From Perkinsus olseni (taxonomy: Eukaryota): a DNA stretch of 56,860 nt. Shown one piece after another: positions 18,410 through 56,860 of the stretch. Location of the stretch: contig JABANN010000175.1 in the NCBI GenBank assembly GCA_013115125.1, positions 1 to 56,860 on the forward strand, written 5' to 3'. How positions within the stretch are numbered: the stretch's first letter is position 1; the number at the start of each line of letters is the position of its first letter. The notes beneath the pieces are model-generated. The model saw only the letters and a list, made by a program, of their open reading frames with translations, was not told the origin of the DNA and did not search any database. The position numbers and the translations under genes were made by a program.

Positions 18410-20962
18410 CTAAGCGGTTGCCTTCACCGTATTGCTCTGTTCATGCCCATCATACTCGGCTTCAAGGAAAGCCCATTTAGCTTTGGTGACTTCCTTTGCC
18501 CTCTGAGCCCTGACCACCACACACAGCCTTTACACGGCTGCAGACCTCCCCCCTCTACTACTGTTCCGCGACATTCCGGACTTTGGAGTTGCACTCGTCG
18601 AAGAAGGGGGGATCAGCCTCCATGAGTAGCTTAATGACATTGTACGACAAACCGTGGACAGTAGTGTTCCAGTGAGAGTCAGAGTTCCTGTATCTGCATC
18701 ATCCAGGAGCGTTCTCCCAGCAGCGAGACGAAGGGGGAAGGAAGGCTTACAATGGTCCAATGACAAGGGGGAAAATAACCTGCCGATTCTGATTTATCCG
18801 CTTGGCGATGTAGTCGTTGTTCCAGAGGAACAGCACCCGCTCTGCAACCTGGGAAGTTGAAGCGAGGGATTCACAGTGTCGGAAGATCTTACGCCCGCTC
18901 GAATGACGCGGTACTACCTGGAAGTGAGGACTCGCGATGCACTGCCCTATCCGCTTGAAAAGTGGTACCTCCACCTTCTGGAATTCTGGTGGTTGCGTCA
19001 ACTGAAGATCATCATGCACATAAAATGCTTCGCTCCGCTGTTTAATATGGGATTACCTCCAGAACCACCTCCACCTCATTGAGAAACAACACTTCTTTTG
19101 GTGTGTTGGTTATTGGCCAAAATCGGAGAAGGCCTATCCGTAACGAAAATAAACCAACTGCTGCTTCGCTCCGCTCGCTCGCATTACCCAGAATGATCGA
19201 GTCAGCTAAGCGCGGATCCTTCTCCACGTATTGAGTCATACAGTATGACAGCTGCTGATGGAAAGAGTTCAACGTCTTCACCTGGCATCCCACCGGAGCT
19301 TTCAAAATCTCCTCAACGCCCCGTGACCGCACCTTATGAAGTGGTATGAGGCTCTTCTCCAAGAACTGCTTGTGCTCCTCCTTCAATGGGAGAGCAAAGC
19401 CGTTGACGATCGAACCGAATATCTCCAGCAGTTCCTCGATGCCGTTGTGATACTCGCTTTCGTATATGATCTTGTAGAAGAGGTTCTGCATGGCTTTCCG
19501 AATGAACGCCCGCAGCGCCATAAATTTGCCTGAGGACCGATCCGATACATCACGCACGAGCTGCTGCTGCTGCTGCTCCGCCGCCGCCGCGGCCTACCGT
19601 ATATCCTGTGGAGTATCGTTTTTAGATAATCCCTTTCGCGAGGATCCTCCGAGTCAAAAAGATCCATCAACCTAAAAATGCCATGACGGCTTCTGCACAC
19701 GACGCTCTCGTCCTCTCAAGAACACGTTTCAAGATGGGATCGGAATGCCATTCACCTTCCACAGACTTGCTGGTTCAACCCAAACCACCGTGCTGCTACC
19801 CCTCCGTCCTTTCCACTACTACCTCAATACGAAAGTCTGATCAACGAACCTCTTGGCGATTTTAGGGTCAACATCATTAGATACCACAAAGCGAAGGAAA
19901 AACTCGTATCTGCATGGGAGAAGAGGCGTAGGCAGCTCATGACAAGCCGACCACATCAAACCTACACAATCTGAAGGTGGGGCCAACTGGGCTCTAGTGT
20001 CGGTTCATCATCTTCGGGATCGTAGATGGAGTTTGGGTTACGACCGTGCACCGGCGGAAGCTGCAGGAAGCAATCAATATGCCCCTCCCTCTATGCCCAT
20101 GCGACGAGTCGTCAGCCGCAAATTTCTTCCCGTTTCCCGTTTACTACCGCCCGAAAAATATTCGCGGAGACCATGTTAACCACATCTTGCATGACCGACT
20201 CGTTAAAGCAGTTGCGCGTATTGTTCACGTACCTATCAATAATCAAATATGGCGAATTTTAGGTCGAAGCTTGCTCAGTACTCCACGAGCTCAAGTAGTG
20301 TTTGTCGTTTGGCTTCCTTCTCCTTGAGATATGTCTGCTGATTATTGAAGTCAAATACGACCCCACACGCTCGCACCTTCTGTCGGAAAAGCTCACTTCT
20401 CTCAGCCACGGGTGCATCTATAAAACTTCAAGTATCCACGCGTATCTTTAGGTTGAGATAGTACTTCGTAGTGGAGGAAGATTCTCGAAAGGGTTGACCT
20501 CGGCCGACATAAAATGGCCGGGTTTTATTAACACTTGCGTGGAATTAGCAAATCCTGGCCCATGCTGATGATGATGGACCTACCCAAAAGCCTACCTTCA
20601 CCATCCACACGCCGTCCTCAATCACTACCTTATGTCCACCACTGTTCGCCACTGGGTGTTGCTGTTGTTGCTGTTTTGACGCCGATGATCCGCCTGTACT
20701 CGCCACCTGCGTGCTGCTGTTGCCTGCTGCGCTCTGCTCATTTCCACCAGCCGCGGAACCTGCCAATCAAACCTTCGCAGTGCGTTGAGGGTATCTTGAG
20801 GTTACCCTTGGGTGAGCTGGTAGAGGCCATAGTAGAGCTGGTCGAGTCCGCGGCAGCATTGGCAGTGGTGGCTGGTGCCGGGCTGTTGTTAGTGCTGCTG
20901 TTGCCGCTGTTTTTCTTTTCCTCGTTACCCATTCGACGCTTTACACTTTGAATCAGCTTCAT
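18410..20962 (-). CDS. PP2A regulatory subunit B' (B56), multi-exon
   Basis: [62 protein letters not shown]. Low-complexity N-terminus. Confidence 0.95.
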
Positions 20963-26704: not shown

Positions 26705-26761
26705 AATATAATAGTTGATGAAGGATGCGCTATGACATAAATCAGATGTAGGCGAATAAGC

Positions 26762-27850
26762 CTAATACACGTAGTTGGCAACATAAAGACTCTCGCTTCC
26801 CGGGCCTCCTTCAGTGCCCTTGTACTTGCCAAGCTGCGCCTCGCTGTTAGCCTTGGCACGGAAAGCGAACGCCTCCTGAGCAGCCTTCACATTTTCGGCC
26901 TTACCGGCCCAAGTCTTAATGGCTGTCGCCTGCAAGGCGCGTCCGTAGGAGAATGTTAGAGCCCAAGGCCTTCGTTCCTTTGGCATGGCGTTCATGGCAG
27001 ACAGGTTGACCGAGGCCTCCTCCTCGCTCTGACCACCAGACAGGAAAGTGACTCCAACCAGGGCAGGCGGCACAGTCCTCTGTAGCGTGCGAACCGTATA
27101 GCGGGCGATGTCCGCCGGGCTTGGGCGAGTCGAACACTGCATGCCAGTGGTTACCATGTTGGGCTTGAGCAAGCACCCCTCAAGGAGTATGTGATGATCG
27201 TTGAGGGCCTTGAACACAGCCGTGAGGACTCTTTCGGTGACGTAAGCACAAGTCTCGATGTCATGAGTGCCATCAGCCAGGATCTCCGGCTCAACAATAG
27301 GGACGATCCTGTGCTCTTGACAGATGGAAGCGTAGCGGGCCAAGGTGTGAGCAGTCTCATCGATAGACAGCTGTGACGGCTGATGCTTCACCTGACTTAT
27401 CTTCAACACAGCACGCCACTTGGCGAACCTGGCTCCAGCTTGGTAGTACTTAGCGCACCTCTCAGCCAGACCGTCGAGGCCCTGTGTGGCAGTCTCCTGG
27501 TCCGAAAGATGCAGAGCAACCAAGCCCTTGTCGACCTTGATACCGGGAATGATTCCAGCCTTGCGAAGGAGCTCGACCATAGGCGTACCATCAGGGGCCT
27601 TCTGGTAGAGCGTCTCCTCGTACAGGATCGAACCGGATATATACTTGCCAACGTCCGGGGTGGTGAACAGGAGTGCCCTGTAGGCTGCCCTATTAGCCTC
27701 AGTGTTGTCAATGCCAGCGGCATCGAACCTCTTCTTGATAGTGCCAGTGGACTCATCTGCAGCCAGGATTCCCTTGCCAGGCGTACAGATAGTCTGAGCC
27801 GTTTTCACGAGCTCGGCCGCAGCGTCTTGATCAATATGGCGGACGGGCAT
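26762..27850 (-). CDS. FBA: Fructose-bisphosphate aldolase class I (362 aa, intronless)
   Basis: [39 protein letters not shown] (Schiff-base Lys), [20 protein letters not shown]-terminal Tyr. Confidence 0.99.
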
Positions 27851-28296
27851 TGTAGTGGAAAGCTCTTCAACAAAGGTGGTGGAGACGACTTCGCAGTGCG
27901 TGTAGCTTTCAATGGGGATAGGGCGCGTCTTGGCAATCGATTCATGCGTGCAGAATCTTAGCTTGAAATTCAAGCCTTGAATAAGGTCGGAGGACGTTGG
28001 AGGACAATGGCCACACGAAGGCTTTACCCTTTTACGGGAGCGGAAAGGCTCTCTCTAGTAGGCATCTCGCAGACGGTGTGTATTGAATCCCTCGCGGAAC
28101 AATGCCATTGTGCGCTGACTGGGGCGTGCGCTATTTACGCAGAAGGTCAAAACCCATCGCTGCGGTTCGAACCTTCGCGGGTTATGCGTCAAGGATCTTT
28201 GGCTGCGTTGCGTGCAACTTACTTGCAATCCGACTCCCGCTCCCCGTCCATCATAGTCGCCCTCTTAGCAGTGCTCCTGTCCACCCTTCTCCACTA

Positions 28297-28756: not shown

Positions 28757-28779
28757 TCGACACCTATCATTGTTGCACC

Positions 28780-29510
28780 ATGATTATGTACACCCATTGC
28801 CGAGGCTCTGGGACGGCGGTAGCGTATAGCGAGGCAGTCTGACCTTTTTTGATACTGTTCTTGGGCTTGCGTTGAGTCTGTGGACTGGGAAATCATCACG
28901 AGCCTTCAGTGGTTGTTGCACCCTGACGACCATGGGCAACTTGATGACGAGCACACCGTGGTCTGTCTGCAGCATGTTCGCTGTGAGTGGTGAGGTCAGG
29001 ATAGCTACTCACCACTGGAAGCGGTTCAGGGCTGGAGGCTGCCTAGCGATCCTCGAGAATGGAAGGAGAAGCATCGCGTGATGGTGGCCGTCCGCCTCTT
29101 CGACGAGTATGATCGGGATGATGACAGCCTTGTGGATCTCATCCAGCTGACCAGTCTTTTCAAGTAAGTTGTGGCCAAGGGGGCGGAGCGAAGCCGTTAC
29201 TCAGGAATCTGGCATTGGAGCTGGAGTTGTTCTTTGATGTTCCTGAGGACGCTCGCCTGTCGTCTGACGATGGTAACCCTCTACCTCTCTGGGGTGTTCG
29301 GTTCTTCGTGCACTCAGGGGTAATGAGTAGGAGTACTGAGATCATGATGCGGTATGGAAGGTCGGGAGGCCCTCTCAAGCTCACGTTTATCCGCTTCCTT
29401 CCTCTCTTCAACGTAAGTCGTAGCTCTGGGCTGATAAGTGGGAGAATTCTTGAAGGGACCCAGCATTCCCTCAGGAGTTTTTCGATCAGCTAGTGGCCGA
29501 CCTCTGAGCA
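28780..29510 (+). CDS. Small multi-exon hypothetical protein with an EF-hand-like loop
   Basis: Exon RLFDEYDRDDDSLVDLIQLTSLF is flanked by canonical splice sites (donor GTAAGT at 29164). Both ends are uncertain. Confidence 0.45.
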
Positions 29511-29787
29511 TGTGCATGCCTTCTAATTACATCAGTTTCTCTCACCGCCAGTGTTGAGTTGACGAACTTTTATTACCACTGTGGAGTGCAGTGTCGACCT
29601 CTTCTGTATTTAGCCGGGGACTCTTGACGCTTCTTGTCTGGACGGTGCTCTGTGTTGCCTTCGGAAGGTTACCGTCTCGGTTTTATCGCCCTCTTGAAGG
29701 GGCGTGCGGACGCGTAGGTGGGTCCGTGAATCGTCCACAGTGCGTTTTTTGTTTATTTGCACTTTGCCGTTTAAAGCAACAAGAGAG

Positions 29788-31345
29788 ATGGAAGACGAGC
29801 TCCTTGAAGTCCGTGATTCCTTCTACGTGGGAGCCTACTCCCGATCTCTGCAGCTGTCGGAACAGACTGCTGTCAGCTCGGATATGGTAGCAGCCGAAAA
29901 GGAGGCCCTCAACGGCAGGTACTCAGGGAAGGGTTCACGCCTGTTGGGCCATTGAGGGGCTCCTGTGTAGGTGCTATCTAGCAGCTGGCATGCTAGACCA
30001 CATCAAGGGCATGCAGCACAGCCCGAACCCTGCCCTCAAGGCTACTGCGCTGATGGCCGTGTAGGACGGCAGTGGTGCTGCTGCTGCTGGTGATTAGTGA
30101 GGAGCATCAGGTACCTGCGAACGCCCCAGGAGGGGCAGCGTAAGACGGCCTTGGATCGTCTACAGGAGCTGGCCACTACCACCAAGGACCCGACTGCACT
30201 GTAGGGCTCCCCCTCCTACCCTTCTCGAGTAGTGGTTGAACCGTCCTAGCAGGTACTACTACGCGACTGCCCTGTCTGGCAGCGGGCAGGGGGCCATGGG
30301 AGCGGTAGATGCCATCAACTTGACTAAGGAGTACTCCAATCCGGAGATGTTGGCAGTTCGGACCTTCCTGGCGGTACTGTTCGGATTTTGGTATTGCAAT
30401 ATGGCTGAATGATGGCATGTTAGATATCGATTGATAGACTGGATCTAGCGGAGCGAAGCTTGAAGGAGTTGGGTAAAATGTGTGCGGGTGATGAGCCTGC
30501 TGCGGCCAAGTACGCCAACGCAGCATGCTCAATAATGAAGGGCGATAACGAGGAGGGCTATCTAGTGTAAGCTTCCGCGCTCATCGCTCTTTCGACCTTC
30601 GGTACTCAACCGTAACCGCTGGTTGACCTAGTTAGTCGATTGCTATAGCGCATGGGCTCCGAGATTTTGAGGCTAACTCGAGAATAGTCTCACCCTCCAC
30701 CCGCGCCGTGAATTTTTCCGAAACTTGGAGTTCGAAGGCGTCTTTTCTGTTGCTGCTGCTGATGGTGATCTTTACTCAGAATGACTGATTTGGGCTCCCA
30801 GTACTCCTGTGATGAGATGAGCCCTGGTGGGACGGAGTCGATCCTTCTCACCAACGGCAAGGCAGTGGCCAACCTCCAAAGGGGCATGTATCAGGAGGTG
30901 CTCACAGCGCCTGGCGTCCAAGTTGATGAACCCGACTCTCAGGCTTATGACGATCTGCTCCGCGTCCTGCAGCTCGACCAGCGTAATCCGGACACTTTGG
31001 TGAATCTAGCCTGTGCGGCTACGCATCTTGGGAAGCTAGAAGAAGCCCAGAAGTAATACAGGAGCTCACTTGAACTCTATAGAGCAGTTTTGAATTTGAT
31101 ACGTGCTTCTATTGTGCTCTCACTGGGTTCGAACTGAGACGTCTAGGATTCTCACTATTCGGCACTGGGCTACGATTGAGTTCTCGAATATTGTTCGTGC
31201 ACAGGTACAAACAGACTCTCCAGCAGCTCCCAAGCGTCGGCTCAGCTCAGGCGTAGGTCCACTGTATTCTAGTAAGGGATGGTAAGTGATTCTGCTCGGT
31301 CAGGTACACAGCGGGCCTTCAAGAGTTGTCCAACAGTTTTTCTAG
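29788..31345 (+). CDS. COPE: Coatomer subunit epsilon, multi-exon
   Basis: DELLEVRDSFYVGAY, IDRLDLAERSLKEL, LLTNGKAVANLQRG, NPDTLVNL. The 3' end is approximate. Confidence 0.9.
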
Positions 31346-36081: not shown

Positions 36082-39000
36082 TCACTTTCGGGGCGCTTCT
36101 TGCTCCTCTGGTTGGAAGTCTTTATTCTTCTTAATAATAACGAATCCCTCGATAACCTTGGTAACGGGTATGTACTCCTCCGTTGCCAGCTCCGCACGAT
36201 CAGTGCATGACAGCAGCACCTAACAGTTGCACCCGTATACTGATCAATACCGCCATGCCGTAGCTTACCGGGGTAGTGTGAGTTTGGAAGCCGGTGATTG
36301 CCTTTGCCTGCTTGCCAGCGATACCAGTAGTATCCACAGCCTGTCCCACACGAACCTGAGGTCACGGGAGCTGAGGTAACGACGCAATCGTTCCAGTCGA
36401 GGCGTACCGGAACACTGATTGGCTCGGGTTCGCTTCCGTCCTCCTTGTCCAGTAGAGTGACCACCATACGGGGGTATCTAAGGGGAAGGTATCGGGTGGT
36501 GAGCTGTGGGTAGATCGGGCTTACATGCAGGGGACGAGATAGTAGAGCATAAAGTGGTACTGGGAGCCGAAGAGTGTCTTATCGATATTGAGGGCACCGG
36601 CGAAGAGGACCACTAGCATTGAGGCGAGGGAGGTGGGGTTGATGAGATACCGATCACTATGAAGTGGGCTCAGGGATACCAAACCCTTGCCGCAGTACCT
36701 GATACATCGAAATTCATGCAGTCAGTCAGTCAGCAGTCTGACGCTTACAGCATGCCCTGAGCGATTCTCGTAGCGTAGAGTGCATTGGGGCTGTTGGCGT
36801 AGTAGGCAGCCAGCTGGCGCAGCAAGCCGGCCAAACGGGAGTTGTTCGTACCAGCTCCCACGATACCTGAGCACACAGTCCTCGGCGGGACCTACCGGAC
36901 GAGGGCTCACCCATGCTGAGTATAGCACACTCTGCAACCTCGTTATCGGCGTCATGGGACAGTCTCGAGAGTGTGTCGATGATCGTGTATCTACAGCGAG
37001 GTGAGGATGCTCTATGCTCACACCGTGTGAGGGCCACTCACTTCGGGTTACTAGCGAACAACATGGCCAAAGTAAGAGGGACACCTCTCTTGATGGTAGC
37101 AGGACAGTACCTATCACATAGCAATCAAGCACATGATGTCAGTGATGACGACCCTCACTGTAGAATATTGTCCATGGCTCGGACGGTCATCTCAGTGCCG
37201 ATCTCCTCTCCCAAGGCGATGAGACCGATACCGAGGACGCCAGCCACTTGGTAATAGCGGGCGGCGCGCTCAGCAGAAGCTTCCGCGTTATCTGTCGTTG
37301 GTAATCTCCGTACCATATCGTCGACTGCCTTCATGACCCACCTCCAAGCTCCTCATCGTCATCAGGGGTGTTATCCTCAGCCGCAGCTGAGCCATCAGCG
37401 TTGCTGCCGTCCGCCGGCTTGGTCGCGTCCGCAGCGATGTTCGGCTTCTCCGTCAATAAATGCATCAACTCCTACAAAAGCGGATTATCTCCATGGCAAT
37501 CATTATAGCATTAGATGGCATCCATTAATTCATTATTATATACGAATGAGTGGGTATGAAGTATCCCTTATAATCTTTTCCCTTAACTGTATTACTAATT
37601 AGAATCAATAACATAAAACACATATTAACAGCACCCCTTCACTAGAACTAATACAATCCAAGACGAGGGGTACTACCACTACACTGCTGCCCATCACCAC
37701 TTACTTGAACCTTAAGTACATCGCCACTGCCAGCGTACCCACAAGACTTCACGACAACCGTACACAGGTTACCTGACGAAGGCCAAACTGCTGCCACTCG
37801 AGGCGACCGATGGACACTTACGAAGCTTCTCGTCCTTAACGCTCTGCTCTACCTCTTCGAGGAGCTCGTCCACTGGGCTGCGGTCCGGCATGCTCTTATC
37901 CCCTCCCTCCGCTGAGAACGACACCACTCAATGTGGACTGGGCATCAGACCCAGAGGTGCTCACCTGGTAGCACAGATCCGCACTGTAAGTAGAGGATAC
38001 CCAAGGCGACGGCGAAGAAGCATACGAAAACGTCCGATTCCGCCGAGAAGGTGGGTAACTGAGAGTGACAGCTGAGCAGCAGCAGGCTGGGAGCATTGAT
38101 GATCGGACCTCCTGTCTCTCCTGAATGGTGGCCATGATGATGTCCTTGATATCGGTATTACCCGTCCCAACGAAGACCAAAGCCAAGGAGACGGAGGCCA
38201 GGGCAGAGAGGGCCAGGGAACCTGCAGACGATGTGTGCGGTGGTACTGTAGGGAAGTGCGCTCACCAGCCTCGGTATCAACAACTATGGGAGTGAGGTTC
38301 TCTGCTAGGTCCTCCCGACGCGATCCAGAGTAGGCAAAGCCAAGGCCCATCACTGCTGCCTGAACGACGGTCACCGAGGCTGAGCGTGGCTGCTATAGAT
38401 GGATATTCCTACCATCTTGACAAGAGGCTCGCTGCTGTCCAACTGCTCAGCGAGGAGAGCCCAGGCAGGGTCCACGTCCGAAGTGACTCCGGTGGAGGCC
38501 AGGCCGAACCCCAGCATGGCACCCGCCTTCACGTTGATGTTCTCTGACCACTGATACCTGCAGTGAGCACTCATCCCGCACAGGTTCGAATTCCAGGAGC
38601 TTCTCGTACTTATCGATCTGTGCGAGACCTTCATCAACATCCCAGAGCATGATCGAGCCCAATGATGCAGCTGCTGCCAACATGCCTGAAAGAAGGCGGA
38701 GCGAAGCAAGTCACCATCCGCAGTTTTCATCCACCGCGTTCACCTCTATCCTTATTCTTATACAACCATTGACTGCCCTCTACGGTCATCAGCTTGTCCG
38801 TCCCAAAGCCCACATTAACCAGAGCGTTCACGTAGGTCGAGGCCAAGTTCTGCTTAGCCGAGTCTATCACCTATCCGACAGATCATCAGGAGGCGAGTGA
38901 GAGCCCTTTCTACTACCGCTGTAGCCGGATTCCTCCCGCGTTCTTCGAGATGGGTCTTATAAACATCCTCTGGAGCCTTGGCTGAAGGGAACAGCAGTAG

Positions 39001-40900
39001 CGTTGGTGATGACAATAGCAGACGAGCCACTCGAAGTGGAGCAGTAAACGCCCCCCTACTACCCTCGACAACATCCAGGTCCTTAGCAAGATTACGGTAG
39101 GTACTTGAGAGGCTCTCATTGGAAAGAATGGATATCTGGTCAGAGAAGGTTACCTTCTACTCGACTACACCAAGGCCTACCAGGTCAGAGTCCTCGTCCT
39201 CATCCAGGCCTAGTTCCTCGGCAGCCTGCAACGCTCCGCCGCTGGCTCGTCCTGACGATCGGGCATAGATGTAGCACATCTGTCGGGCTATCGACCTGAT
39301 GCAGGGAAGGTGTGGTACTAGATACCGAGCTGCATCACTGACCTATCCTCCTTGATATCAATGGCAGCCTTCATGGTCTCGCGGACTCTACCGAAGTTGT
39401 TCATCCTCATGGCTATGCTGAGCAGGGCGGACATCCGACCCAGTAGCGGAAAGGAAGCTTACATGAGGGCATTGGGAAGGTCTTTCATCTCAGTGAAGAT
39501 CTGGTAGGTCACGTTCAACAGCACTCGCCTCTCCTCAGTGTTAGCGGCGAGATGAGCCAGGCCCACAAGGTACTGGCAAACCCTCGGAGCCGTCACGCTG
39601 TCCACCAACTGAACACAGGCCGCGTACTCAACACCCGTACAGCCGCTGCAGCTGGATCATCACCTTGGGTAGCTTCTCGATGCCGTCAGTCTCGGCCAGG
39701 AGATCCACTGCCTCCGTCTCCGCACTGTGGCTCATGTTGTAAGGCACCTGCGGGAGGGGAGAGGGTCGGGGCCAATCCTGCCCACTGGTCATATTACGAT
39801 TTGATCCACGAGAGTTATGAGCTCCGTGACGTCCTTGCCGTCAGCTATGCGGCTCTGATACTCGGCGGAGATCTCGCCGGATATCGTCCTGATACAACAA
39901 TAGTCATGGTCGCGGACGGTCGCAGATGGAAGGATATGAGGGCAGAGGGGAGACGACAATTCAGCGTCCGTAGTACCACAACCGACGCCCACGGTAGAGG
40001 CCGCGATGAAATTTATGGCGGTGGAATATGGCGAGTCTGTCTCGCCACCTCCCCAGTACTACTTCATAAACTCCATGCCCCACTTAGTGATGTCCTTGTT
40101 GGTACCAGCCAGACGGTATCGAAGAGTAGCTCCCTTCTTAACATGGCCCACGCCAGGGTGCTCAGCCTTATCCGCAGCACCGCTGCCCTCGGCTTCCTTA
40201 GGAGCAGCTTCTTCGGACGAGACTACCGAAGCAGTGGTAGCTTCATCAACCTTCTCGTCGCCGACGTGCTTCTTCTCTCGCGATTTCTCCACGGGTATTG
40301 TTGTGGAAAGAACCTAGCAGGTCAGATCAACCAGTTGGCATCATAAGCTAGTCATCCCGCAACCCAGGTTCGACCCCAACGTACTGCAAGGACATCCGCA
40401 AGCTCCTTCTTAACCTCACTATCGGGCATCGCCTCATAGGCCGCGGCTAGGGGAACGAAATGCGCCCTCAAGAACTTCAATGGCTTCGGCACAGACGTCA
40501 TGCTGAAGCAGATGACACTTCCCCATCCACGCCCTCTCTGCAAACCTCACCTGCTGGTCGCGGACCTCATCTCCTCACCGATCGCTTGGATGGCTCCTTG
40601 AACGTCTCCAGACCTGACCGAGCACGATAGTGGAGCGGCGTGGGGAATCGGTCGCGTACCCTGTTGTGATGGTATCGACCTGCTTCTCCAAGAGGGTCTT
40701 CAATTGCTGGTCCTCTTCGGACTACACACAGGGACTTCAATGAACCATCGACCGACTGTGGTCTTTACTACCAGTTCTTTTTCAGCCTCCAGCTTGCGCC
40801 TCTTCTCTTCCATCACACGCCTCCTTTCCTTAGCTGCTCTCTCTGCCTCGTCCGCCGCATGAAGGGCTTTCTTATTATCACCACTGCCACCGCCGGCCAT
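36082..40900 (-). CDS. RPN1: 26S proteasome regulatory subunit RPN1/PSMD2, multi-exon
   Basis: [90 protein letters not shown]. Confidence 0.96.
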
Positions 40901-41378
40901 TGCTATTGTATGACGAGCGAGTTCAAAAACACAACTTAGCGAACCGCGGCAGTGCGACACCTCCCTTCCCCCTTCCTAAAACCCAAGGCCAGAGAAGGCC
41001 AGAAACATTCCCATGCCACACACGAACACTAACGGCGTTCCCGACCAGTCCATCTTCCCGAAGTCGAGGGCTGGCCGAAGCCTCTGCCGGGAGCCGTTGG
41101 GTTGTATACCTGGTGAGCACGCTTGCCGTCGAAGGAGCATATGCTTTGGACGCACTGTATAGGTCCCGCTGACCCTCTCTGGTGTAACCCCGTAGGGCCA
41201 TCGCTTGCTGATCTGTTGCCTGACCTGAATGGTGAATATCATTCATAGCGGAGCGACGCAGATAACAAGGAAACTCTGTTGCGCGGTCTGCCAACCTCTC
41301 TCAGACATTAAGAGCGCCTGTGCTCAGTAGTCCCAAAGACACAATTCGCGAGAGCATCAGATAGAGCCCGGCCCTCCA

Positions 41379-42720
41379 CTAGGTGACGACTATCCGATGA
41401 TGATCGAAACCAGATCCTACCGGTACAGGCTTCCCGAAGTTGGCAGGCGGCGGCTTCACCAGATGCCGCGTGTACCTAGCATTTAACTCATACCCGGGAA
41501 TAGGAGGCGTGGGGCTATTACTACTACCTGACTAGCTTGCCGGTTTGAGGATGCTTCACGTTACGAGGCCGATAACGGTGTCGCCATAGCCTCTGCTGAA
41601 GCATCCACTTCACTTTATCGCCATCAACAGCGATAGCATTGACCGTCTAAAAACTTGAACCTTCTTCGCAAGCACCATCATCACCATGCTACCTTAGAAG
41701 GGTCCTTCAGTGCCATGTAGTTGAATCTGACCAGCCTCAACCCCAGCTGTTTCACAACCCATTTGTATAGCTCGAAATCCTTCGTGAAGAGAGCCTTCAT
41801 TACTCTATTCCCTACCACAACTTCTCCTAAAATTCCATACCATCTCATCGTCAACACCTACGTCTGCACAATGCCATTTTTATGGCCTGCTTAGCTCGAG
41901 TATTCCTCTCCTGCACGATGTTAGTAGCACGCATGTTCAGTATCCTCTCCGTCAAGCTAACATCACCACGCCTACCCCACCTGCCGCCACCCGACCCTAC
42001 ATCGCGATTTTCACAGGGAGGCTACCCGTGTCGAAGGCCGACCGTTGGAACTTCTGTAGCAGCTGGTATCGGCGGAACCTGTTGACCGCCATCAGCAGCA
42101 TGCCCACCCCTCATTGTTCCATCATACTTCGACACTTGTTTCTCAGAGGCACAAGCGAGCGACAAAGTCTGCCGCAGCTCAGCCGGGGCAGCACTGAGAT
42201 CGTCCTCACTGAGGTTGTACCTGTCACCTTGTCCTAGCCAACAGTCCCCCTACATGGCCCTACACATAACCCGCTGGCCTTTGTGCTCTCATCAACAGGA
42301 ACTCCTTCTCCGCCGAAATCTGTCAACAAACCCCTACCAAGCTCGCTGCAGATCCCAGTAATCCTACCTGGAACAGTGTCTTTATGGGAGCGCATTTCTG
42401 AGCCCTGTTCCCTGTAAATCGATGGTACTCCAATTTCGGCAACTGGTACTTGTAGGGCATCGGCCCTTGATTCGGCGGCAAATTCACTTTGAGATAGGGG
42501 TTCTTCGGAAATAGATTTTTCTTCTTCAACTTAATCTTCGCGAATCCACGCTTCTGCAACAACACCTGACCTCCGCTCCCGGCTGAAATAACAGAACTCC
42601 CGCCAAAGACGAGCTTCGACCTTGGATACTACCATCCCGTAGAAGCAGAGGCCTCGGCACCGTACACAGGAAAGAATTCATCATGGAAAGACGAGCAGAA
42701 CCCCTACTGAACTCCGTCAT
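41379..42720 (-). CDS. Mitochondrial ribosomal protein uS15m, multi-exon
   Basis: KFQRSAFDTGSLPVKIA|LTERILN...RRNRVMKALFTKDFELY (S15 core). Arg/Ser/Leu-rich presequence-like N-terminus. Confidence 0.8.
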
Positions 42721-42911
42721 GTTCCTCACTACAACACAACTAAACGCCGAAAACACGTGGACATCCTCCTCACGTCAAACAGGACGTCACTATCATCGGT
42801 AATGGTACTAGTCTGTATGGTATCGTCAACTGTAACACGATTGAATTGAGAAGAGGAGAAGCTAGACAAGGGAGGGGGCGGCAGGTGGTGGGAATGATAT
42901 ACAGATATTCC

Positions 42912-44041
42912 TTAACACTCTGTGCCACGATGCTTCATCTCGGACGGGGTTCGCCTTGACGAGGGCATTGGCTGCCCGGCTCTAAGCAACGCAATTGATA
43001 ATGAAGACCCAACCCTCGACCCACTAGTACCAGCCCATACGCCAGACTCTCTTGGAAGTCCATGAGGGTCGCTTCTTCGTCTGCCACCATGCGCGTCCAA
43101 TGGGCATGCACGGCCATGCAGGTGGCTGTGAAGAGGTCCTCGAAGGCTCCTGCCGTCAAGGCCATCGCCGAGGCGAAGACCTTCCTTTCGTACTCAGAGG
43201 AAAGCACGCTCTCCTTAGTGACGGGAGAAAAACCTAATTTGAGACAGACTAGCCAGGACTGCGGTAAAGGCAATAGGCCAGCCTACCATCGACCATACGC
43301 AGATAATGAAGCAGCATAAAGTGAACGTTGATGGCAGTAGCCGCGAAAGGGTAGTGGAATCTGTTGGAAGCCCCTCCACCATAACCATCACTGCCAGCGA
43401 CCATCTCTCGGAACTCCTGCCATCAAAGCACAGGGTCATTGACCTCCACCACAAGCCCTTCCCCAGCCTACCGGGCCGTATGCTCTCGCAGCCTGTACCA
43501 TACACAGCAAGGCGTGAGGGCCCGTCCGGAAGTCGGTACTAGGACGGCCACTTTGGAAGCCCACAGACTTCCACCGCTCATCACGCGGTAGGTCGGGAGC
43601 CGTGGAGCCGCCAATGGTGACGAGGCCCCACCACTCGAGAAGGAGTGCACTCATACTATCCTCACTCAAGGCGTTGTCCACGGCAGCGCTTCTGGTAAGG
43701 TCCGCTAGCAGACCCTCTTCCACCGGCGTGAGGGGTGGATAGGGCCTGAGGGAGGCCATCCACCTCCTCAACCGGTACACAGCGGAGTCGAGCCAGTCCT
43801 TTATGTAACGGCAGAAAGATGAGCGCGCAGGATATTTCCGCGAGGCGCAGCAGCACCTCTCCTTAAAGGCTGTGGGGCGGCCAAGGCACCCACAGCTCGC
43901 GATGGTAGCAAAGATCTCGGGCGCTGAGCTTGGGTGACTTGGCTGGGTTAGTGAATCGTCCATAGCCTCGTAGTGTGCTTGTGAAGGGACTGTGGACGCT
44001 ATAGTGCCGCCCGAGGGAGAGGGAAGCGGCGGAGAAGGCAT
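42912..44041 (-). CDS. ELMO/CED-12 domain protein
   Basis: RWKSVGFQSGRPSTDFR matches the ELMO WxxxGFQxxxPxTDFR motif. The 3' end is approximate. Confidence 0.85.
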
Positions 44042-44354
44042 CGCTGAGGTAAAACCAGGAACCAGAAGGAACTGCTGCGACGATTCAAATGCTTCTTCGA
44101 AGACAGATTCGGTCGAGTGCGGTCATGATCCACATCGCTCCGCTCCCAAAATTTGTATATTTACACATTTTGACCGTCGCGCGCCACGAAATACTCCAAA
44201 CTGCCATAACAAGAAGACAACCATTGGAAACGTATGGGAGGAACGTGTTGAACTACTGCTGTTGCTGTCGTCAGTGCCGCCACGCCGTGGCGATAACAGT
44301 GGAGGATTGGATGTAGCAGTAGCAGTATTATTATTAACAATGGACGTTGGATGA

Positions 44355-47965
<3,611 letters not shown>

Positions 47966-48333
47966 GACTGTACAGTAGACTGTGTCGAGCAGCAACCAAA
48001 CGCAACTATCAATACCACACCTTTCCCGCCTTCCAGCCCCCAACCCAATGCTAATGACTTCGCAAAACTTACGCAGAGTACGCAAAGTCGGCTGCGAGGC
48101 TGCTGCTGCTGCTGTTGCTGTTATTGATCATGCTACTACGGGTACTAATGGCCGGGCGTGACAGATTCCCACCTTGGCGCCCCTCCTCCATCCCTGCCGA
48201 CGTCTGTCGTGGCTGTTTTACCAATAATAAAAGTGTCAAAAGTTATAATGAATATCGATAATAATACTGAAACTCTGCCGTAACTACTACACGACAGCCA
48301 CCCCGATACGTCACCATCATCAGAGTGTCGGCT

Positions 48334-49541
48334 CTACCGATCGATGGCCATGGAGAAGCTGTACGGGAACCAGGCCGTTGACCCTGTCTGAGGGTGGGGG
48401 ATATCCTAACAACAACATGAACATCACCCGAGCACAACCCACCCGCCGCCGCTCACCCTCCAGTCCTCGTCCACTCTCATACCCGCAGCCCACCCACTAG
48501 CGGTGACTTCGAGCACTCTTACTACATCACCGGCACACAGGTCAAGGAAGCCGCCAGGGTTGCCAACACTCATGGTCTCAGCATCGGGACTAAGGTAATG
48601 AGCACCATAAGACAGCCGTATCGTCAACAACCACCGCCCCTACACAAAATCATGAACAATACGCCTGTACTCATTAACGGCTCTAGTGTCCGCCTCCGGA
48701 GCCGCCTGCTGCTGCTGAGGCTGATAGTGATGGTGATGCTGCTGTTGGTCCTGCTGTGGCGGCATAGGCCTCGAGTACTGATTGCTATGGGCCGCTGTCG
48801 TCGCTGCAGCAATCGCCTCGAACTCCCTTCGACGTCTCGAAGCCTCGTCGCCGTAGCCACTAGACTGACCAACACCATTGTGGTAGTGCTGTGGGGGTGG
48901 ACCACTATTGAACTGGTGACCACTGCCAGCATCAAACCCTGGCTGGTGATGCTGCTGCTGGTGGGGTGGCATGGAGTGATCGTAGCCATAGGGCATACGG
49001 TCGGGGTAGTGGGTATACTCACGATGCTGCTGCTGGAGATGGTAGGGCGGTTGGGGCTGGTGATGATGGCCCATCATAGGCCCTTCTGGCGGGGTGTTAT
49101 CCGCTCGTTGGTCATAGTAGAAGCCTTTACCATGCATAGCAGTATGAACCTACAGAAGGGGCTACATTGTCGGAGGGTGGCAGTAGTAGCTCCTCTCACC
49201 GAAGCACCATACGCTGGTTGTTGCTCCTGATGCAGCAGCCGATGATGATGCTGTGGCTGGTCCTCCAGCCCTTCCTGCTGCTGCTGCACTGCCGGTGGTG
49301 AAGGGAATGATGCTCCGAGCCCCACAGGAGGATGCTTGAGAAAGTCCAAGGTGTTGGCAGAGGACTGTCTGTCGGTGGTGTCCTCGAGGTCCCCCAATCT
49401 GCTCAGGGGAGTGGCCGGCGGTTTACTCCGTCTACTGGTCCTGCTAGTCGGTGACCAATCGCTAGGCGGCGGGGGCGGCAGTGTGCCAGACTCCACCATG
49501 CTAGAGTTATTGCCACCAGGCAGGGTATCATTCTGTTCCAT
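48334..49541 (-). CDS. Gln/His/Pro-rich protein with a C-terminal SH3-like domain
   Basis: FLDLCAGDVVRVLEVTASGWAAG...AWFPYSF. Low-complexity N-terminal exons. Confidence 0.65.
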
Positions 49542-49715
49542 CGCTATCGCCTCGCTAAGGACACAACAACAGCGTCGGGCGAACATCAGCAGTAACTCTC
49601 CGGTCAATAAAGTAATTCTGATACTCAGAATCGATTCAGAATCGACGATTCTGGAATTGATTTTCATGCGTGGTTCGTCGAACGACCCCCAACCACCACC
49701 GCCCCACCCGACTTA

Positions 49716-51371
49716 CTACACCCTAGGAGCACTGTTCTTCAGTTGCCCTTCCACAGCTGCTGCTATACTTGCCGCGGCTTCAGCCATCCCCGGTCCTACT
49801 GGTATCGGCGGACCGGGTACTGCCGCAGCCGATGCCGGGTCCGTTCGAGTAGCTGCTGTCGTTGTGCTATCGCTCGTTATTTCCACATTATTATGCTGCT
49901 GCTTCCGGGCGGCGCTGCGGTCACTGGTCGGAGATATAACTTTGTCTCTGGCGGAGGGGGAGATGACACTGGCGCTATTATTCCCTGCGCCAGCCGCCGC
50001 CGCCGTCCCGGTGCTCCCGCCTGTCGCTGACTTGTTGCGGACCACCGATGCAAAGTCCGCCCGAGGAGCCATCTGGTCTCGAACGATCTCCTCAACCTGC
50101 TCCAAGAGTCGCGGAAAAGTTGGTATGGAAAAGTCTTTCCCCACCTTACTACCTGGCACTGGTGTATATGAGCCGCGTACTCCGATATTGTCCCCTGCCA
50201 TCTGCACTCTATGCCGAGTGCTGTCTTCACAAGCTCGCTTGGAGGATTCACGCTCTGACTCCCTGCTACGTCCCCGCTACTCTTAGAAGCAGTAGAAGCG
50301 CCATTGGGCACCGCGTCATCAACCACGTCATTAGCAGCAGCAGCCGCCGCCCTTTCCGCCAAGTAAAGGGGTGATATAAAGTTAACTGGATGATGCTTGC
50401 ACCTAAGGCGACGTGCTGGAAGGTCGGACGGCTATACGGCTGGTAGGGAGATTACCTCACTCGAGTTTGCCGGTACTCTCTCAAGGTCTTCTCATCGAGG
50501 CCCCCAACATCACTCCTGGCTAGTCCATGGTTGCAGCTGTGAAAGTAGCACAAAATCGGTGATCGAACGAGCAACCGGGTATCACTACCTCGGACACGGT
50601 ATGCTAGTGACTGGCTTATTCTTTTGTTTCGCTGGTATCGTAAAGCGCTCCTGGCAAGAGAAGACGGACGATCATCACACAACGATAACCCAATCGATAA
50701 GACGGTGATGGACTCGGTCATGGAACGATACTCAGTCAACCACAGGCTCACGGGGAAGGGGGGCACCGTACTACTACTACCATATGGGCTTGGAAACAGT
50801 TGCGACAGAAACGGTGTCTGCAGGGCCGAGTCTGTATCGGGTCCTTCAGCACATTATTGCATCTACCGCATATACAGTGGGATAGGTCGGCCTTCTCGCT
50901 ACAGTCATTAGGAGCTGGCAAATTCACCAGCTGATACCTGTCCAGCAACCACTATCACAAGTCTCATGAAACCCTAACCTCACCTGTGGATGACGGTATC
51001 CGAGCTTGGCCCTGACGGCCGGCTCGCCGCCGGCCACGCACCCTTGACACCAGTTCCAGTGGAACCCGACCCAGCGGAATTTGTTGCACCGCCGGGAGTG
51101 CTTCCCTTCTTGCCAGCTTGCGATGCGCCTGATCCCCCAACCATGCACCTTCCCTTCAGCCATCGCCCCTACTATGCGATGGCGCTGTGGCCGAAGAGCT
51201 GTTACCAATGAACGCTGAAAGGGTGCTCGATGCAGCTTGGGGTAATGCATGGCCTGATACCGTCATCACTGGCCCCTGAGACAAAGGTGGGGCCTCAACC
51301 GTTTCCTTGGTACGGCACACGGTACCGATCTGGGCGGCGGAAGCTTCCTTATCTCGTCGTAGCTCCTGCAT
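49716..51371 (-). CDS. RING-HC (TRAF-like) zinc-finger protein, multi-exon; may be the 3' part of the upstream gene
   Basis: CICGRCNNVLKDPIQTRPCRHRFCRNC, and later CRWQGTISEYAAHIHQC (TRAF/SIAH-type finger). Confidence 0.65.
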
Positions 51372-51399
51372 GACGCTATCTTGGCCTGAAAAAGGTTAT

Positions 51400-53026
51400 T
51401 CATTCTAGCGGAGCGAAGCAAAAGTGTACCATCTCCTCGGTCGAGAGGCCTCCTTGTGGCGATGCATTCGGATGAACGTCATACATGTGCAAGTGCGCTA
51501 TTGGGCTCGGCTTCCGCTCCTTAAAGGCGTTGACGCACTTGGAAGGACCACAGCCCGATTTGTCGTCCGCTATGCATAAGATGAGCTGACAGAAGGGGAG
51601 GAGGGTAGCGGGGGTCATTGCGAGCACCAACGCTCTTTATACTCAGCAGCCTGCGATAAAAATTCCGGAACTTCCTACAACTTCATCTGAGGTGACTGAT
51701 GACAAAGGAAGCCGGAAGGTTATATATAATCCTTGGATGCACCGGTAATTGTGGTTTACTCGTAGAGCTACACTGTGCAATATATGCAGACACAGGTTCG
51801 AGCCCCCGTACCTACCTTTCCCGTATCCACAAGTACTTGCAGCATCTCCTGCGGTTTGCTAACATTATTATTCTCCATCCGCAGCCACGTCGGTTGATAG
51901 CTGAGAAGCATCAACCGCCCTCCTCCTAGCCTCACCACCCCCTCCCTACATTTGTGACTTGGCTTGCCAAGGATACGCATGGTTGGGATGCAGCGAGAAG
52001 GTCATCAACAGCTGCATGATGCCTCGCTCTGACCACAGGAGCAGCTGCCCAATCACCCCTTCACCAAATTTCATCACCAGTTATCCTATTATTAGACAAG
52101 TGCAACTCTTCTATCGCCTCACTCTGGTCTGCCAGCATCTGCGACAGTCGACACACCGCCACATCGTCTATCAAGTTGCGATAGAGTCGGAGTGCCTGAG
52201 GTAGCATCTTGACTTGACCAAAACCGCTCCGCTGTCCTCAACCTCACCTTGCACTGGACGTTATGGTGCGCTAGAGTGTTCAGCATGATGATGCAGCCTG
52301 GTGATGTTAGTTGATTCTCAGCTACGAGGGACAGCAGATCTCGCTGGATCGGCAGCTCCCGCCCTTACCAAGCTCCACATTAGCACAAAGTCTGTACCGG
52401 TAGACGAAGGTGGGGTCACTCGTTGTCGGCTAAGCAAGAGACATCCAGGTCACTCAGGCCACAGTAAATATACTTTACGTATAGTGACACAGCTCCATGG
52501 TGGAGGCCTAAGGCCTACGGCAATAGCGATACATTTAAACTGACTTTTGTTCGTACCAGCACAGGCCTTTACGATCATCTGACGCCTAGGTACCAGTGAG
52601 CTTGAACTATGAGCCCGCCTCAGCACGCCGCCCCACACCTTCCCCTCAGTCCCTCATCTACTACCCCCGGATTGGAGTCCCTGTACTCCTTCTTATGCTC
52701 CTGCAAGAACTGCTCCAACGCAGCGCTCGCATCCTGGGCCAGTGCTCGGTCCACCCCGAGACGCTTGTTATTCAACTGATAGTCAACACATAAAACAACC
52801 TCCCTCGGACCATTGCCTCTCCCCGCCCTACTACCCTCACAGTGAGCCAATAGGTGCCATCGGGCTTGGTAGGGGTTATATGGAAGCAATTACGCCACTT
52901 AGAATCCCCTTTACTGTTGCTAGTCCCCGGCCCCTTTGCATGCAATGGTGAGTATCCGACTCCACCACTACTACCATGGTGATGGTGATGACGATGTGTT
53001 GCTGATGATGATGACGAAGAGGCCAT
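51400..53026 (-). CDS. Hypothetical protein with LRR-like segments, multi-exon
   Basis: Exons give NVEL...NQLTSPGCIIML, LRLYRNLIDDVAVCRLSQML and WLRMENNNV. Start is MASSSSSSATHRHHHHH. Confidence 0.5.
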
Positions 53027-53249
53027 GGCCCTTGGGTCAACGCTCTTCGTAGGACAAGTAGAAAGCCGGCCAGCTGGTGGAAGTACCCAGACCCAACTCT
53101 TAGACCGCCTTCCCAGCACCTTCCACGCTCCTGTATTATCCACTATGGACGCAAGCCAGATACGAACCAGGAAACCTCCTCAAGTGCCAACACTCTGCCC
53201 CACACAACCACGACCACCAAAAACTGATTCACGGGATACCGCCCATATC

Positions 53250-54099
53250 TCACGCCCCCTTCTGCACTGCCTTGAGACTGTCCAACAACACCTACCACAC
53301 CAAACGCAACTCTTGCGCCACATACTCTCTCCCCAACCTCCCTACCATGCGGCGCTCGAACAGAGCCCTTGCCCTCCTGTCAGCGATATCTTGGGCCAAC
53401 AGGGCACTCTGAACCAGCAAAGTCCAGTCCAGTGAGCTCCCATCGAGTACCGTACATTGGTGGCATCAGCCTGCTCCTTAACGATGCTCTGTCTGCACTG
53501 GTCAAAGGCCTTGAACTCAGCATCACACTCCTTATCGACAGTAGGGGAGGCGAAGTTACTCGAGAGGCATCGGAAGAACGTCATTCCTAAAACAACATCT
53601 ACCTATGCTACCACTCCTCCACCAACTCCTACCAGCAGGGCGGCACTTGTGGTCGTTGTCAGTGGCATTGTCGAACATGCGAGTGTAGGTATCGGCCTTG
53701 CGCTGCTTGGCGTCCACCGACAGCTCTTCTCCACCCAGTGAAGGACGGCCCGCCACTATGTCGGACCACATCACCTAAGGACAATTCCCTCATCACAACA
53801 CCGCTCCGCCTCCCTCTGTACCTTCTCTCGAACAGGGATGTCCTCAGGAGCGTTGTTGCTGAGCCCCGTGAAGTTGTTATCGTCCAACTCCTTCTTAATA
53901 GCTAATCCCCGCTCCATCCGAAAACGACGAGTAAGGAACCACTCCTGACAATAGCCAGCATCAAACTAAGATTCCTCTCCCCTAGTTCCATAAACCCCAC
54001 CTTCAAATCCCTCTCTATGCCATTGAGCTCCGACGTAACATAAGCCTGATACTTCTCATTCTGACTGGGGACGTGGTTAGAAGCAGCAGCAGCAGACAT
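53250..54099 (-). CDS. Twin-CX9C protein resembling myzozoan ATP synthase subunit ATPTG8
   Basis: ELNGIERDLK, NFTGLSNN, VMWSDIVAGRP, LSVDAKQRKAD, KCR..GMTFFRCL, CDAEFKAFDQC and ALFERRMVLLD match my recollection of Toxoplasma ATPTG8. Confidence 0.75.
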
Positions 54100-54199
54100 G
54101 GTGTTAAGAAAACTCAAAGCAAGAGTGCTCTTCTATCAACAGCAATACTCAACACCACCCCAACCAACACAAGGCCTCGATGGTCATAACCATAAGATG

Positions 54200-56842
54200 A
54201 ATTCAAATCATGTTTATGACGTGATACCCCTCTACCTCCCACAGAGGGCTCTTTCCTGACACTCAAAGGCTAAGACGACTCGTACAGGGAGAGGCCGCCG
54301 CCGGCGCCCACCTCCTCAGACTGCACCGTCCCTTTAGGGAGGAACTCGAACAGCTCCGCTCCATACTCCGCCAGCAGCCTCTTACGCTCTTCCGCTATCA
54401 CCTACAACATGGCCCTTCCAATGGCAGCCGAGAGCCCAGGCCCATCCACCTCCTTCCGAACGGAATCAAACTTGAGCAGCTCCTCATGCTCCTTCCGCTC
54501 CTTCTCCCTCTCCGCATCAAAACGCTTCTTCCTCTCCTCCACCAGACTACCATCAACCACCGTGACCGCTGCGCCCCGGAATTCCCAACCCTACCGATCC
54601 ACCTCCCGCTTGTGCTCCAATACCTTCATACGCCTCCTCTGGTCGTTCATCTGCTCTATCTTAGCATCCTACCGACCACAACCCTCCACCCAACACCCAG
54701 CACCCATCCCCACCTTGGCAAACTTAGCCATCAGCTCCTCTCGGAACCGGGCCTCCTGAGCCTCCTCCTCCTGCCTCTTCTTCTGCAACACTGACACCTT
54801 TCAACAGACGCCAACTTCCCTAATATAACCTCCTTAAGCTCCATCTGATACTCATAGGCTGCCAGCATCTCCTCTCGGTCCTTCGCCCTCTTCGCTGCTT
54901 CCGCCTACCACTCCAAAAGAATCGTCAAATCACAGCCTATCACCCCACCTTCTCCCTCTCCCGATTCTTCTTCTCCAGCTCCTCCCAAAACAGTTCATTC
55001 CTGTAATACTCCAACTCAGCGTCTTTGGACGCCTTCGCGGCTTGGTCAGCTGCACGGCCATAGCTCCGGTCCTCATTCCCCCCATGAACCCCCTACCCAT
55101 CATCCTCTCCAATATACGCTTCTTCTCCTTCTCCGTCGCTGCTTTCTCTGCGTCCAACCTGAGGTAGTAATCAGTAGCGCTAAATCGGATATTCAATAAC
55201 TATAAGGGGCACAATAGTAGTGAATCGATATCTGTTCTGAAACCAACATGACCCGAAACAACGAACTACCATCCACGAACTCAGAAAGGCACAAAGCCGC
55301 ACTCAGTAGGATCAAGTGCTTGTACACCGCCTGGACCCTTTCATGCTTGTTCGTACAGATTCCACACGAGGAGAAGAAAAACACACAATACGAGAGATTC
55401 TCACCTTTCCTCCATCTCCCTCTTGGCCCGCGCATAAGCCTCTATTCTTGCCTCTTCCGCTCTGTCAGCAGCTTGCTGTTGTCGACGAAGTCTAACATAC
55501 ATCTTGCGATCTTGCATTTCCTTCACGCTCCAACCTCGCAGCTTCCTCCGCGAAGTCCTTCAACTGCTTCTGAGTGTCCAGCTGCTGCTGTCGTCTCCGC
55601 TGCATCGCCTCCAGCTCCTCCTACATGCCAAACCTCTCAAAGCTCCTTCCCCCTACCAAAGACTACCCCACCAACTAGGATCATACCACTATTAACATAG
55701 TTAATACTTCCGAAACACAACAATTCTAGCGGATCCATGCAGCAGTAGTACCTGTTGACACTTCCTCACCACAGCATCCACCTGCGCCTTCTCTCGAAGA
55801 TGCTCTTGTAAGGCCTGAATGGAAGGTGAGTGTAGCAGCCCCACCCTACGGTATTACGATGTCCCGCTGCTGCTCCTTCTCAGCGATCTGCTGTTGTTGT
55901 AGGTCCTTTGCATACTGCCTCTTCTCGTGCTGAACGAAAAGTACACAAATCCTAGCGGAGCGAAGCAACGACAGCCCACAACCTACCACTGTATACTCCT
56001 TCAACTTCTCCTTCTCCAAGTCCTTCAATCGTTCTAAAGCATACCAATCCCTCCTACCCCGACTCTCTCCCTTATACCAATTTCCAGCTGAGTTTCCAAA
56101 AGCTCCTCCTGTCGTCGCTGTTCCTGCGCCCTGTACTCCATATCAAGAAGCTGAACCGCCCTCTCCCGGTTAACCTAACGATCCCTCTACCTCCCAACCA
56201 ACAACCACTCCCCTACCTTAGCCTGCTCTATTCTCTCCCTCAACTGCCTCAGCTCATCACTCTCCTCACATATTTGCCGCCTCAGTTGCTCCTCCCGCAC
56301 TGCTCTTGCCTGCCTCGCCTCCAACTCATCCGCTGCTGCTTGCTCCATTGCCATTATCTAACACCATCAAGCGGCTTCCTACCTCCTCAACACCTGGACG
56401 GACCCGCTGACACGCTGAAGAAGCCTCTCAGAAATGCGAAAAATGCCGAAAACAGAATACGGTCTCAAGGAGGATCACGCGTTACGAATATCAGCAACCA
56501 GCAGACACCACCGTTCTCTTGGTCTCCTTATGGGCAGCCTCCGCTAGGTACTCCGCATCAGCGGTCCTCTCCCTAGCCATCTCTTCTTGCCTGAGAATCT
56601 CTATTCAACCTAGCAACACTGATCAGCCACTACTCTCTTTTCCAGCGCTTCAGCTCCACCCTCTTGTCGCTCTTACTATGCCCTCCTGCGGCAGAGGACA
56701 GATAGTTCCTCCACTCCCCCTCACTACTATTCCCACCTAATATCAGCTGGTCTTTCAACATCCTACCCAGAGACTCATTCCTCGCCTCCCCCTCTCTGAA
56801 CTTGACCAGCTCTCTCTCCCTGTACCGTCGTAGCTGTGCCAT
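54200..56842 (-). CDS. MNS1: MNS1-like (TPH-domain) coiled-coil axonemal protein, multi-exon
   Basis: QICEESDELRQLRE...AKVNRERAVQ and C-terminal EERKRLLAEYGAELFEFLPKG. E/R/K-rich. The 3' end is approximate. Confidence 0.75.
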
Positions 56843-56860
56843 AGCGAGTCGACGTACAAC

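Follow-up and report, generated by a model that had tools for sequence, protein, structure and literature searches.

The word and its copies

The window analysed here is a stretch of 56,860 nucleotides (nt) of Perkinsus olseni DNA, covering positions 1 to 56,860 of contig JABANN010000175.1 (GenBank assembly GCA_013115125.1). It carries, among others, genes encoding B56, epsilon-COP and RPN1, and in it the 12-base word GCGGAGCGAAGC was found in eight exact copies, counting both strands. Six of these lie in tiny introns, one in non-coding DNA upstream of a gene, and one in a coding exon. A first-pass annotation, made from the letters alone, had placed eight copies at the same positions and had called the word highly over-represented; both claims held. 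The two copies with a single mismatch that it had named were recovered as well. The ten sites are:

19027..19038, minus strand: exact GCGGAGCGAAGC in a 55-nt B56 intron (19002-19056), sense; a tblastn gap against Perkinsus B56 proteins, spliced out in the P. olseni protein P0123
19163..19174, minus strand: exact GCGGAGCGAAGC preceded by GCGA, in a 54-nt B56 intron (19134-19187), sense; an alignment gap, spliced out in P0123
21348..21359, minus strand: exact GCGGAGCGAAGC preceded by GCGA, non-coding, about 386 nt upstream of the B56 start codon (20962) and in the same direction as B56; 5' intron or intergenic spacer
29183..29194, plus strand: exact GCGGAGCGAAGC, sense, within a 41-nt intron (29164-29204), gene on the plus strand; frames and GTAAGT..CAG signals, with which the intron finder agrees; no RNA evidence seen
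30448..30459, plus strand: exact GCGGAGCGAAGC after CTA, sense, within an epsilon-COP coding exon; in frame as Ala-Glu-Arg-Ser
38696..38707, plus strand: exact GCGGAGCGAAGC in a 58-nt RPN1 intron (38686-38743), minus-strand gene, antisense; frames and homology of the flanking exons
51408..51419, plus strand: exact GCGGAGCGAAGC after CTA, antisense, within a 44-nt intron (51386-51429), gene on the minus strand; frames and GT..AG signals
55955..55966, plus strand: exact GCGGAGCGAAGC after CTA, antisense, within a 57-nt intron (55930-55986), coiled-coil gene on the minus strand; frames and GTAGGT..TTCAG signals
770..781, plus strand: one-mismatch copy (position 6, G to A)
41248..41259, plus strand: one-mismatch copy (A to C at position 10), antisense, probably within an intron of about 196 nt, gene on the minus strand

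Such a number of copies lies far above background. The word was absent from all 100 dinucleotide-preserving shuffles of the window, and Markov models of orders 1-5 trained on the window predicted 0.009-0.033 copies. Allowing up to one mismatch, 10 matches were counted (shuffle mean 0.41, maximum 3); allowing up to two, there were 16 (shuffle mean 5.75, maximum 12). At 0, 1 and 2 mismatches the window thus holds 8, 2 and 6 copies, the two-mismatch class being close to background. When all 12-mers of the window were ranked, equal frequency was reached only by CAG-type simple repeats, and every other complex 12-mer occurred at most three times.

Alignment of the eight exact copies on the word showed 12 invariant core positions out of 12, with A in six copies at position -1 and in five at position +1. 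Information content fell off beyond these two positions, which leaves a sharp core of 12-14 bases. The extensions described beforehand as common to three and to two copies proved to be CTA directly before the word (30448, 51408 and 55955) and GCGA at the same place (19163 and 21348). Past 1-4 shared bases the flanks are unrelated, and the repeat finder paired copies over the word and chance extensions alone (pairs I3 and I5). Within 150 nt on either side of the copies, no partner word rose above random-site controls. Flanking duplications or terminal inverted repeats around the eight copies were not seen by eye, no dedicated scan being run, and an Rfam scan of the window matched no family. The word is not palindromic, its reverse complement being a different sequence.

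The 8-base core GCGGAGCG occurs in eight copies beyond the exact word, where 2-4 would be expected for all copies together. One of the eight is the one-mismatch copy at 41248. The others do not have the AAGC tail:

9364, 39232, 44136, 47609, 47742, 52225 and 53802: further copies of GCGGAGCG

Their contexts include the RNA-confirmed intron 53775-53821 (one copy), an exon (47609) and a position between genes (44136). Between 36 and 57 kb, five of six lie on the G-rich strand of minus-strand genes. Because this bias may largely reflect base composition rather than decay of former copies, we did not count them as members.

No earlier description of the word was met. Full-text literature searches with GCGGAGCGAAGC, its reverse complement and its 11-mers returned nothing on Perkinsus or on genome motifs, supplementary k-mer tables being outside their reach. 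Articles on Perkinsus introns, motifs and genome assemblies, supplements not covered, likewise gave no description of such a word. One metagenome scan for DNA of sister species yielded two loci, which both resemble intron-less cDNA at 60-68% identity; the full word was present in neither, and one of them had a single match to the 8-base core.

Introns, orientation and the exonic copy

The partition into six tiny introns, one upstream non-coding site and one coding exon had been proposed in the first-pass annotation and was borne out by reading frames, splice signals, homology and P0123. The gene names given with it fared unevenly. B56 and RPN1 were verified. The EF-hand assignment of the gene at 29183 was weak (E 0.047, below the Pfam cut-off), and LRR/RING and MNS1 found no support in the searches. 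For the exons near 51408 and 55955, searches of Pfam and PDB gave nothing useful, and no homologue of the gene at 55955 was found, the last protein search yielding none from 401 candidates.

Strand and structure of the host genes were derived from several lines of evidence. Around 29183 (28.1-29.7 kb), five intron candidates lie on the plus strand and one on the minus strand. The exons flanking the intron at 38696 match residues 371-404 and 407-430 of PSMD2/RPN1, with 14 minus-strand candidates against one on the plus strand. Contigs of four RNA-type public runs were aligned to positions 36861-56860, and 15 of the 87 joints were displayed; 13 of these 15 skip 43-60 nt and two skip about 300 nt, and the introns are on the minus strand. 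These contigs give minus-strand introns to the gene that reaches from 48138 to about 52200, and a joint over 51386-51429 is not among the 15 displayed. At 55955 RNA cover is almost nil, and intron candidates between 54.15 and 56.86 kb number 11 on the minus strand and one on the plus strand. Run X8 has a loose end of 15 letters at 41419 that is identical to the window immediately left of 41223; coming from a single run, this is weak evidence for the intron of about 196 nt around the one-mismatch copy at 41248. An extra joint inferred at 48404 to 48644 showed no canonical ends within five bases on either side.

Tiny introns were also collected over the whole window with a rough finder, which listed 94 of them with a mean length of 51 nt. 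Of these, 75 lie between 36.1 and 56.6 kb, where they make up approximately 19% of the sequence. The finder recovered 13 of 20 known introns and chained neighbouring genes, so that it provides a rough intron list only and its intergenic size is unreliable. Its splice matrices were trained on 20 introns, including two word-bearing B56 introns, one of which was entered one base off. Codon-usage strand calling was set aside, as antisense frames scored alike, and an open-frame intron test proved too permissive.

Five of the eight exact copies fell in strong tiny-intron candidates, for which the probability of a random 12-mer is 0.112 (binomial p 7e-4); the sixth intronic copy escaped this count, the coordinates of its intron having been entered one base off. 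The copies thus favour introns, a result qualified by the presence of the two B56 introns in the training set of the splice matrices. The intronic copies start 10-36 nt from the 5' splice site. Word-bearing introns measure 41-58 nt, with a mean of 51.5 nt as against 50.9 nt for 14 word-free introns known from RNA contigs or homology (Mann-Whitney p 0.51). Only six of at least 94 predicted tiny introns contain the word, and none of the 15 introns confirmed by the displayed RNA joints does.

With respect to their host genes, the copies occur in both orientations. The two B56 introns, the intron 29164-29204 and the epsilon-COP exon carry the word in sense, and the introns of RPN1, 51386-51429 and 55930-55986 carry it in antisense, so that the intronic copies divide into three and three. 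Along the window the strands of the exact copies run - - - + + + + +, with a single switch between 21348 and 29183. A replication-polar signal would give this order, and chromosome words of the Chi and KOPS type change strand at replication origins or termini; but the probability of one switch or none among eight sites is 0.0625, and the plus-strand one-mismatch copy at 770 breaks the pattern. Because orientation relative to the genes switches only once too, a pattern polar to replication and one relative to genes are inseparable here.

The copy in the epsilon-COP exon was compared with two orthologues, P0122 of P. marinus and P0121 of P. chesapeaki, against neither of which the exon shows an insertion or deletion (indel). 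The tetrapeptide encoded at the word varies between species: P. marinus has Ala-Glu-Arg-Ser (AERS), as in the window, and P. chesapeaki has Ala-Asp-Arg-Gly (ADRG). The exonic copy is spelled with the less-used codons GCG and CGA and is preceded by the leucine codon CTA. In about 670 confident codons, GCG accounted for 13% of alanine, CGA for 13% of arginine, AGC for 22% of serine and CTA for 8% of leucine. The same tetrapeptide occurs in B56 at 20726, where its coding sequence differs from the word by two synonymous changes; the peptide therefore does not require the word. Chance is excluded as the origin of the exonic copy.

Mini-hairpin composition and possible readings

The word has an internal make-up that is new to this analysis. 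GCGGAGCGAAGC consists of the heptamers GCGGAGC and GCGAAGC overlapping by GC, so that its positions 1-7 and 6-12 both fit GCGNAGC. In the accessible part of PMC13037366, GCGNAGC is described as extraordinarily stable "mini-hairpin DNA" present at priming sites of the phage G4 type, and GCGGAGC is placed in promoter hairpins of phage N4. In the window, GCGAAGC occurs in two copies outside the word, where about 10 would be expected in total, and GCGGAGC in 16 copies outside it against 9-13 expected. The three other variants of the form (GCGRA)2GC have no copies, confining the enrichment to the exact word. A nearest-neighbour DNA fold gave 0 kcal/mol for four of four copies tried, under a model assumed not to score sheared G-A triloops. 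We do not think that the hairpin by itself explains the enrichment, because neither the generic heptamers nor the other double variants are enriched.

We tentatively favour, as a possible reading that stops short of being probable, that GCGGAGCGAAGC is a sequence-specific recognition site in DNA which arises in place by substitution and whose reader would most simply be a factor. The sharp core of 12-14 bases, the indifference to gene strand and to position within introns, and the origin in place argue together for a word that is read on DNA. Under this reading, the word would be a stand-alone site, with the GCGGAGCGAAGC core and usually an A on each side, bound by a sequence-specific DNA-binding factor. 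Copies would arise by point substitution where they stand, not by insertion, and would persist in sequence free to vary. This would mainly be the 20-30 unconstrained bases of 41-58-nt introns, and occasionally codons able to spell the word. We infer that the reader would be a protein and not an RNA guide; its binding might set a chromatin or architectural mark, or make the word an origin-like or recombination-like site.

Two earlier claims bear on this choice, namely that the word is neither a splice signal nor an ordinary transposon. Both held, and both favour something read at the DNA level. The further proposal of the first-pass annotation, a site for a protein that acts as chromatin organiser, origin or recombination factor, is a candidate no more live than a repair or conversion bias that multiplies the word. 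A spliceosomal signal (splice site, branch point or intronic enhancer) was rejected because the word occurs in both orientations, starts at variable distances from the 5' splice site and is missing from most introns, including all those confirmed by displayed joints. For much the same reasons it is highly improbable that the word acts in pre-mRNA as a splicing enhancer or as the site of an RNA-binding protein. Seven of the eight copies lie in transcribed DNA and six in introns, as such an element would require, but three of the exact copies in introns, and also the one-mismatch copy at 41248, run antisense to their genes, the antisense exact copies are as exact as the sense ones, and no Rfam family matched in the window. 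An introner or an element resembling a miniature inverted-repeat transposable element (MITE) was disfavoured as well: the copies show no likeness over most of the intron, no terminal repeats or duplications that could be seen by eye, and no added length. Inserted elements are very unlikely because the flanks are unrelated, flanking duplications were not seen, introns with the word are of ordinary length, and in the exon the word stands in place of codons, one for one. We give hardly any credence to the word being what is left of a small mobile element or introner, as a remnant or a footprint, after it entered or created introns. Subgroups of copies do have 3-4 further bases in common at one side (CTA in three, GCGA in two), and introners are known in the related parasite Amoebophrya (PMC7789003, accessible part), but the absence of added length and, by eye, of duplications or terminal inverted repeats stands against this origin, and for the exonic copy it is largely refuted.

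An unlikely but coherent explanation is a word that spreads by itself, where a recognition-dependent bias of mismatch repair or gene conversion would turn near-matches into exact copies and carry the word through tolerant DNA without benefit to the host. It would account for the abundance of exact copies beside few near-misses, for the lack of a position rule inside introns, and for an exonic copy that sits without indel at a species-variable tetrapeptide, in less-used codons and 24 nt from an intron, when the AERS of B56 is spelled differently. Such a bias alone would leave it unexplained why introns are preferred to intergenic DNA, and it would still need a factor that reads the word. It also counts against the self-spreading word that we know of no repair or conversion drive of this type in a eukaryote. 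Quite unlikely, in our view, is a broader version in which Perkinsus harbours a eukaryotic counterpart of the iterated words of bacteria: the reader of a double mini-hairpin word would bias repair or gene conversion, so that the word is rewritten into introns and even into codons, and its strand would follow the direction of replication and not that of the gene. Improbable, too, is a signal in single-stranded DNA, with the unwound G-rich strand folding either GCGNAGC mini-hairpin and so marking the template for replication priming or pausing, polar to the fork. The two heptamers of the word, both named as mini-hairpins in the accessible part of PMC13037366, and the single strand switch along the window would agree with it; against it stand the lack of enrichment of generic heptamers, the missing double variants, the modest improbability of a single switch, its violation at 770, and the fact that gene-relative order switches once too.

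Several observations weigh against the recognition site that we favour. The intron 24 nt from the exonic copy could host a site at no coding cost, and this proximity, together with the less-used codons, makes the exonic copy lean towards mutational or conversion bias over selection for a site there. The ratio of six intronic copies to one in upstream or intergenic DNA is not obviously expected of a site that merely avoids codons, and the excess in introns is left unexplained by the recognition-site and bias readings alike. The 15 RNA joints displayed, out of 87, give no direct view of word-bearing introns being spliced out. The first 19 kb of the window contain no exact copy and one one-mismatch copy, and all evidence on the word comes from this one 57-kb window of a single P. 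olseni contig. Finally, any reader of the word is purely inferred.

Among known systems, the closest parallels are bacterial. The DNA uptake sequences (DUS) of Neisseriaceae and the uptake signal sequences (USS) of Pasteurellaceae are short, exact, over-represented words which occur on both strands, inside and outside genes and with unrelated flanks, and which arise by substitution. The highly iterated palindrome HIP1 of cyanobacteria has 8 bases and recurs across coding and non-coding DNA; its cause is debated between selection and a repair-linked drive. We know of no DNA-uptake route in Perkinsus. Within this window, the Perkinsus word resembles DUS, USS and HIP1 in being exact and short, in exceeding background by far, in occupying both strands and coding as well as non-coding DNA, and in arising without indels. 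It differs from HIP1 in its 12 bases and in not being palindromic. DUS and USS act through preferential uptake of DNA by competent bacteria, whereas the Perkinsus copies are concentrated in spliceosomal introns.

Eukaryotic parallels are more partial. The yeast consensus of the autonomously replicating sequence (ARS) and the sites of general regulatory factors and insulators are orientation-free, with long exact cores, and lie in non-coding DNA at kilobase spacing, mainly between genes. The Perkinsus word is like them in its sharp, orientation-free core; likeness in sequence was judged by inspection alone, and none was seen. For TFIIIC B-box or E2F-type sites, a partial likeness to the consensus was noted by eye only. 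Introners of Amoebophrya, Micromonas and Aureococcus share with it the repetition of a sequence in introns of unrelated genes, in the case of Amoebophrya in a lineage near Perkinsus (PMC7789003, accessible part). They fill most of the intron and have inverted and direct repeats at their ends, whereas the Perkinsus copies share 12-16 bases only, anywhere in the interior, on either strand and without added length. The heptamers GCGGAGC and GCGAAGC link the word to mini-hairpin DNA, for which both are named in PMC13037366; in the part of that article available, the phage mini-hairpins are single and stand within longer stems of single-stranded phage DNA, whereas in Perkinsus two overlapping heptamers occur in a nuclear genome.

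The density in the window is about one copy per 7 kb. The genome of Perkinsus measures some tens of megabases, and if this density held genome-wide, several thousand copies would be present, placing the word among the most frequent exact words known in eukaryotes. Sequence-specific recognition of DNA is little known in this lineage next to the dinoflagellates, and a sharp word offers a handle on a DNA-reading factor, as a bait or as a target for footprinting. Perkinsus is transfectable. In genomes with introns of only about 50 nt, the word could also help to tell whether intron sequence is shaped by selection or by a conversion bias.

Further features of the window

The B56 region (15970-20962, minus strand) corresponds to P0123, an annotated P. 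olseni protein of 926 amino acids that joins B56 to a downstream cysteine-rich part; this part is named a RING-type E3 ligase by one source. Residues 1-53 and two C-terminal segments of P0123 match the window at 96-100% identity. The B56 proteins of P. marinus end near 18413. P0123 looks like two genes merged in one model.

The RNA contigs showed further details of transcription. Loose contig ends at 40937, 44073 and 48007 match, in reverse complement, the 3' part of the spliced leader of Perkinsus (leader sequence as in the accessible part of PMC3101222), and these positions are therefore taken as trans-splice acceptor sites of three minus-strand genes. An RNA-supported intron of 47 nt at 44642-44688 has GC..AG ends (GCAAGT..CAG); at the other 14 displayed joints the donor is GT. 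On the 3' side of the RPN1 gene, at 36909, each of the four runs has a contig that continues leftwards with 255 letters unlike the window; a long intron, a trans-joined piece and a structural difference are candidate explanations. At 56787 the window has one base more than all four runs, perhaps through an assembly error, perhaps as a fixed difference. A T in place of C at 52154 is confined to run X19.

The left third of the window, where the exact word does not occur, holds a sequence of 300 nt or more three times (4258-4568, 5691-6001 and 12556-12866; 77-91% identical), and a further pair (2062-2361 and 10176-10475) is 83% identical. Judged from the sequence, these copies point to a small family of duplicated genes. 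A 29-nt unit is repeated in three tandem copies at 945-1031 (96% matches). Finally, a class I fructose-bisphosphate aldolase is encoded at 26765-28054 on the minus strand (Pfam E 5e-168) in one uninterrupted frame, whereas neighbouring genes are cut by an intron every 100-150 nt.

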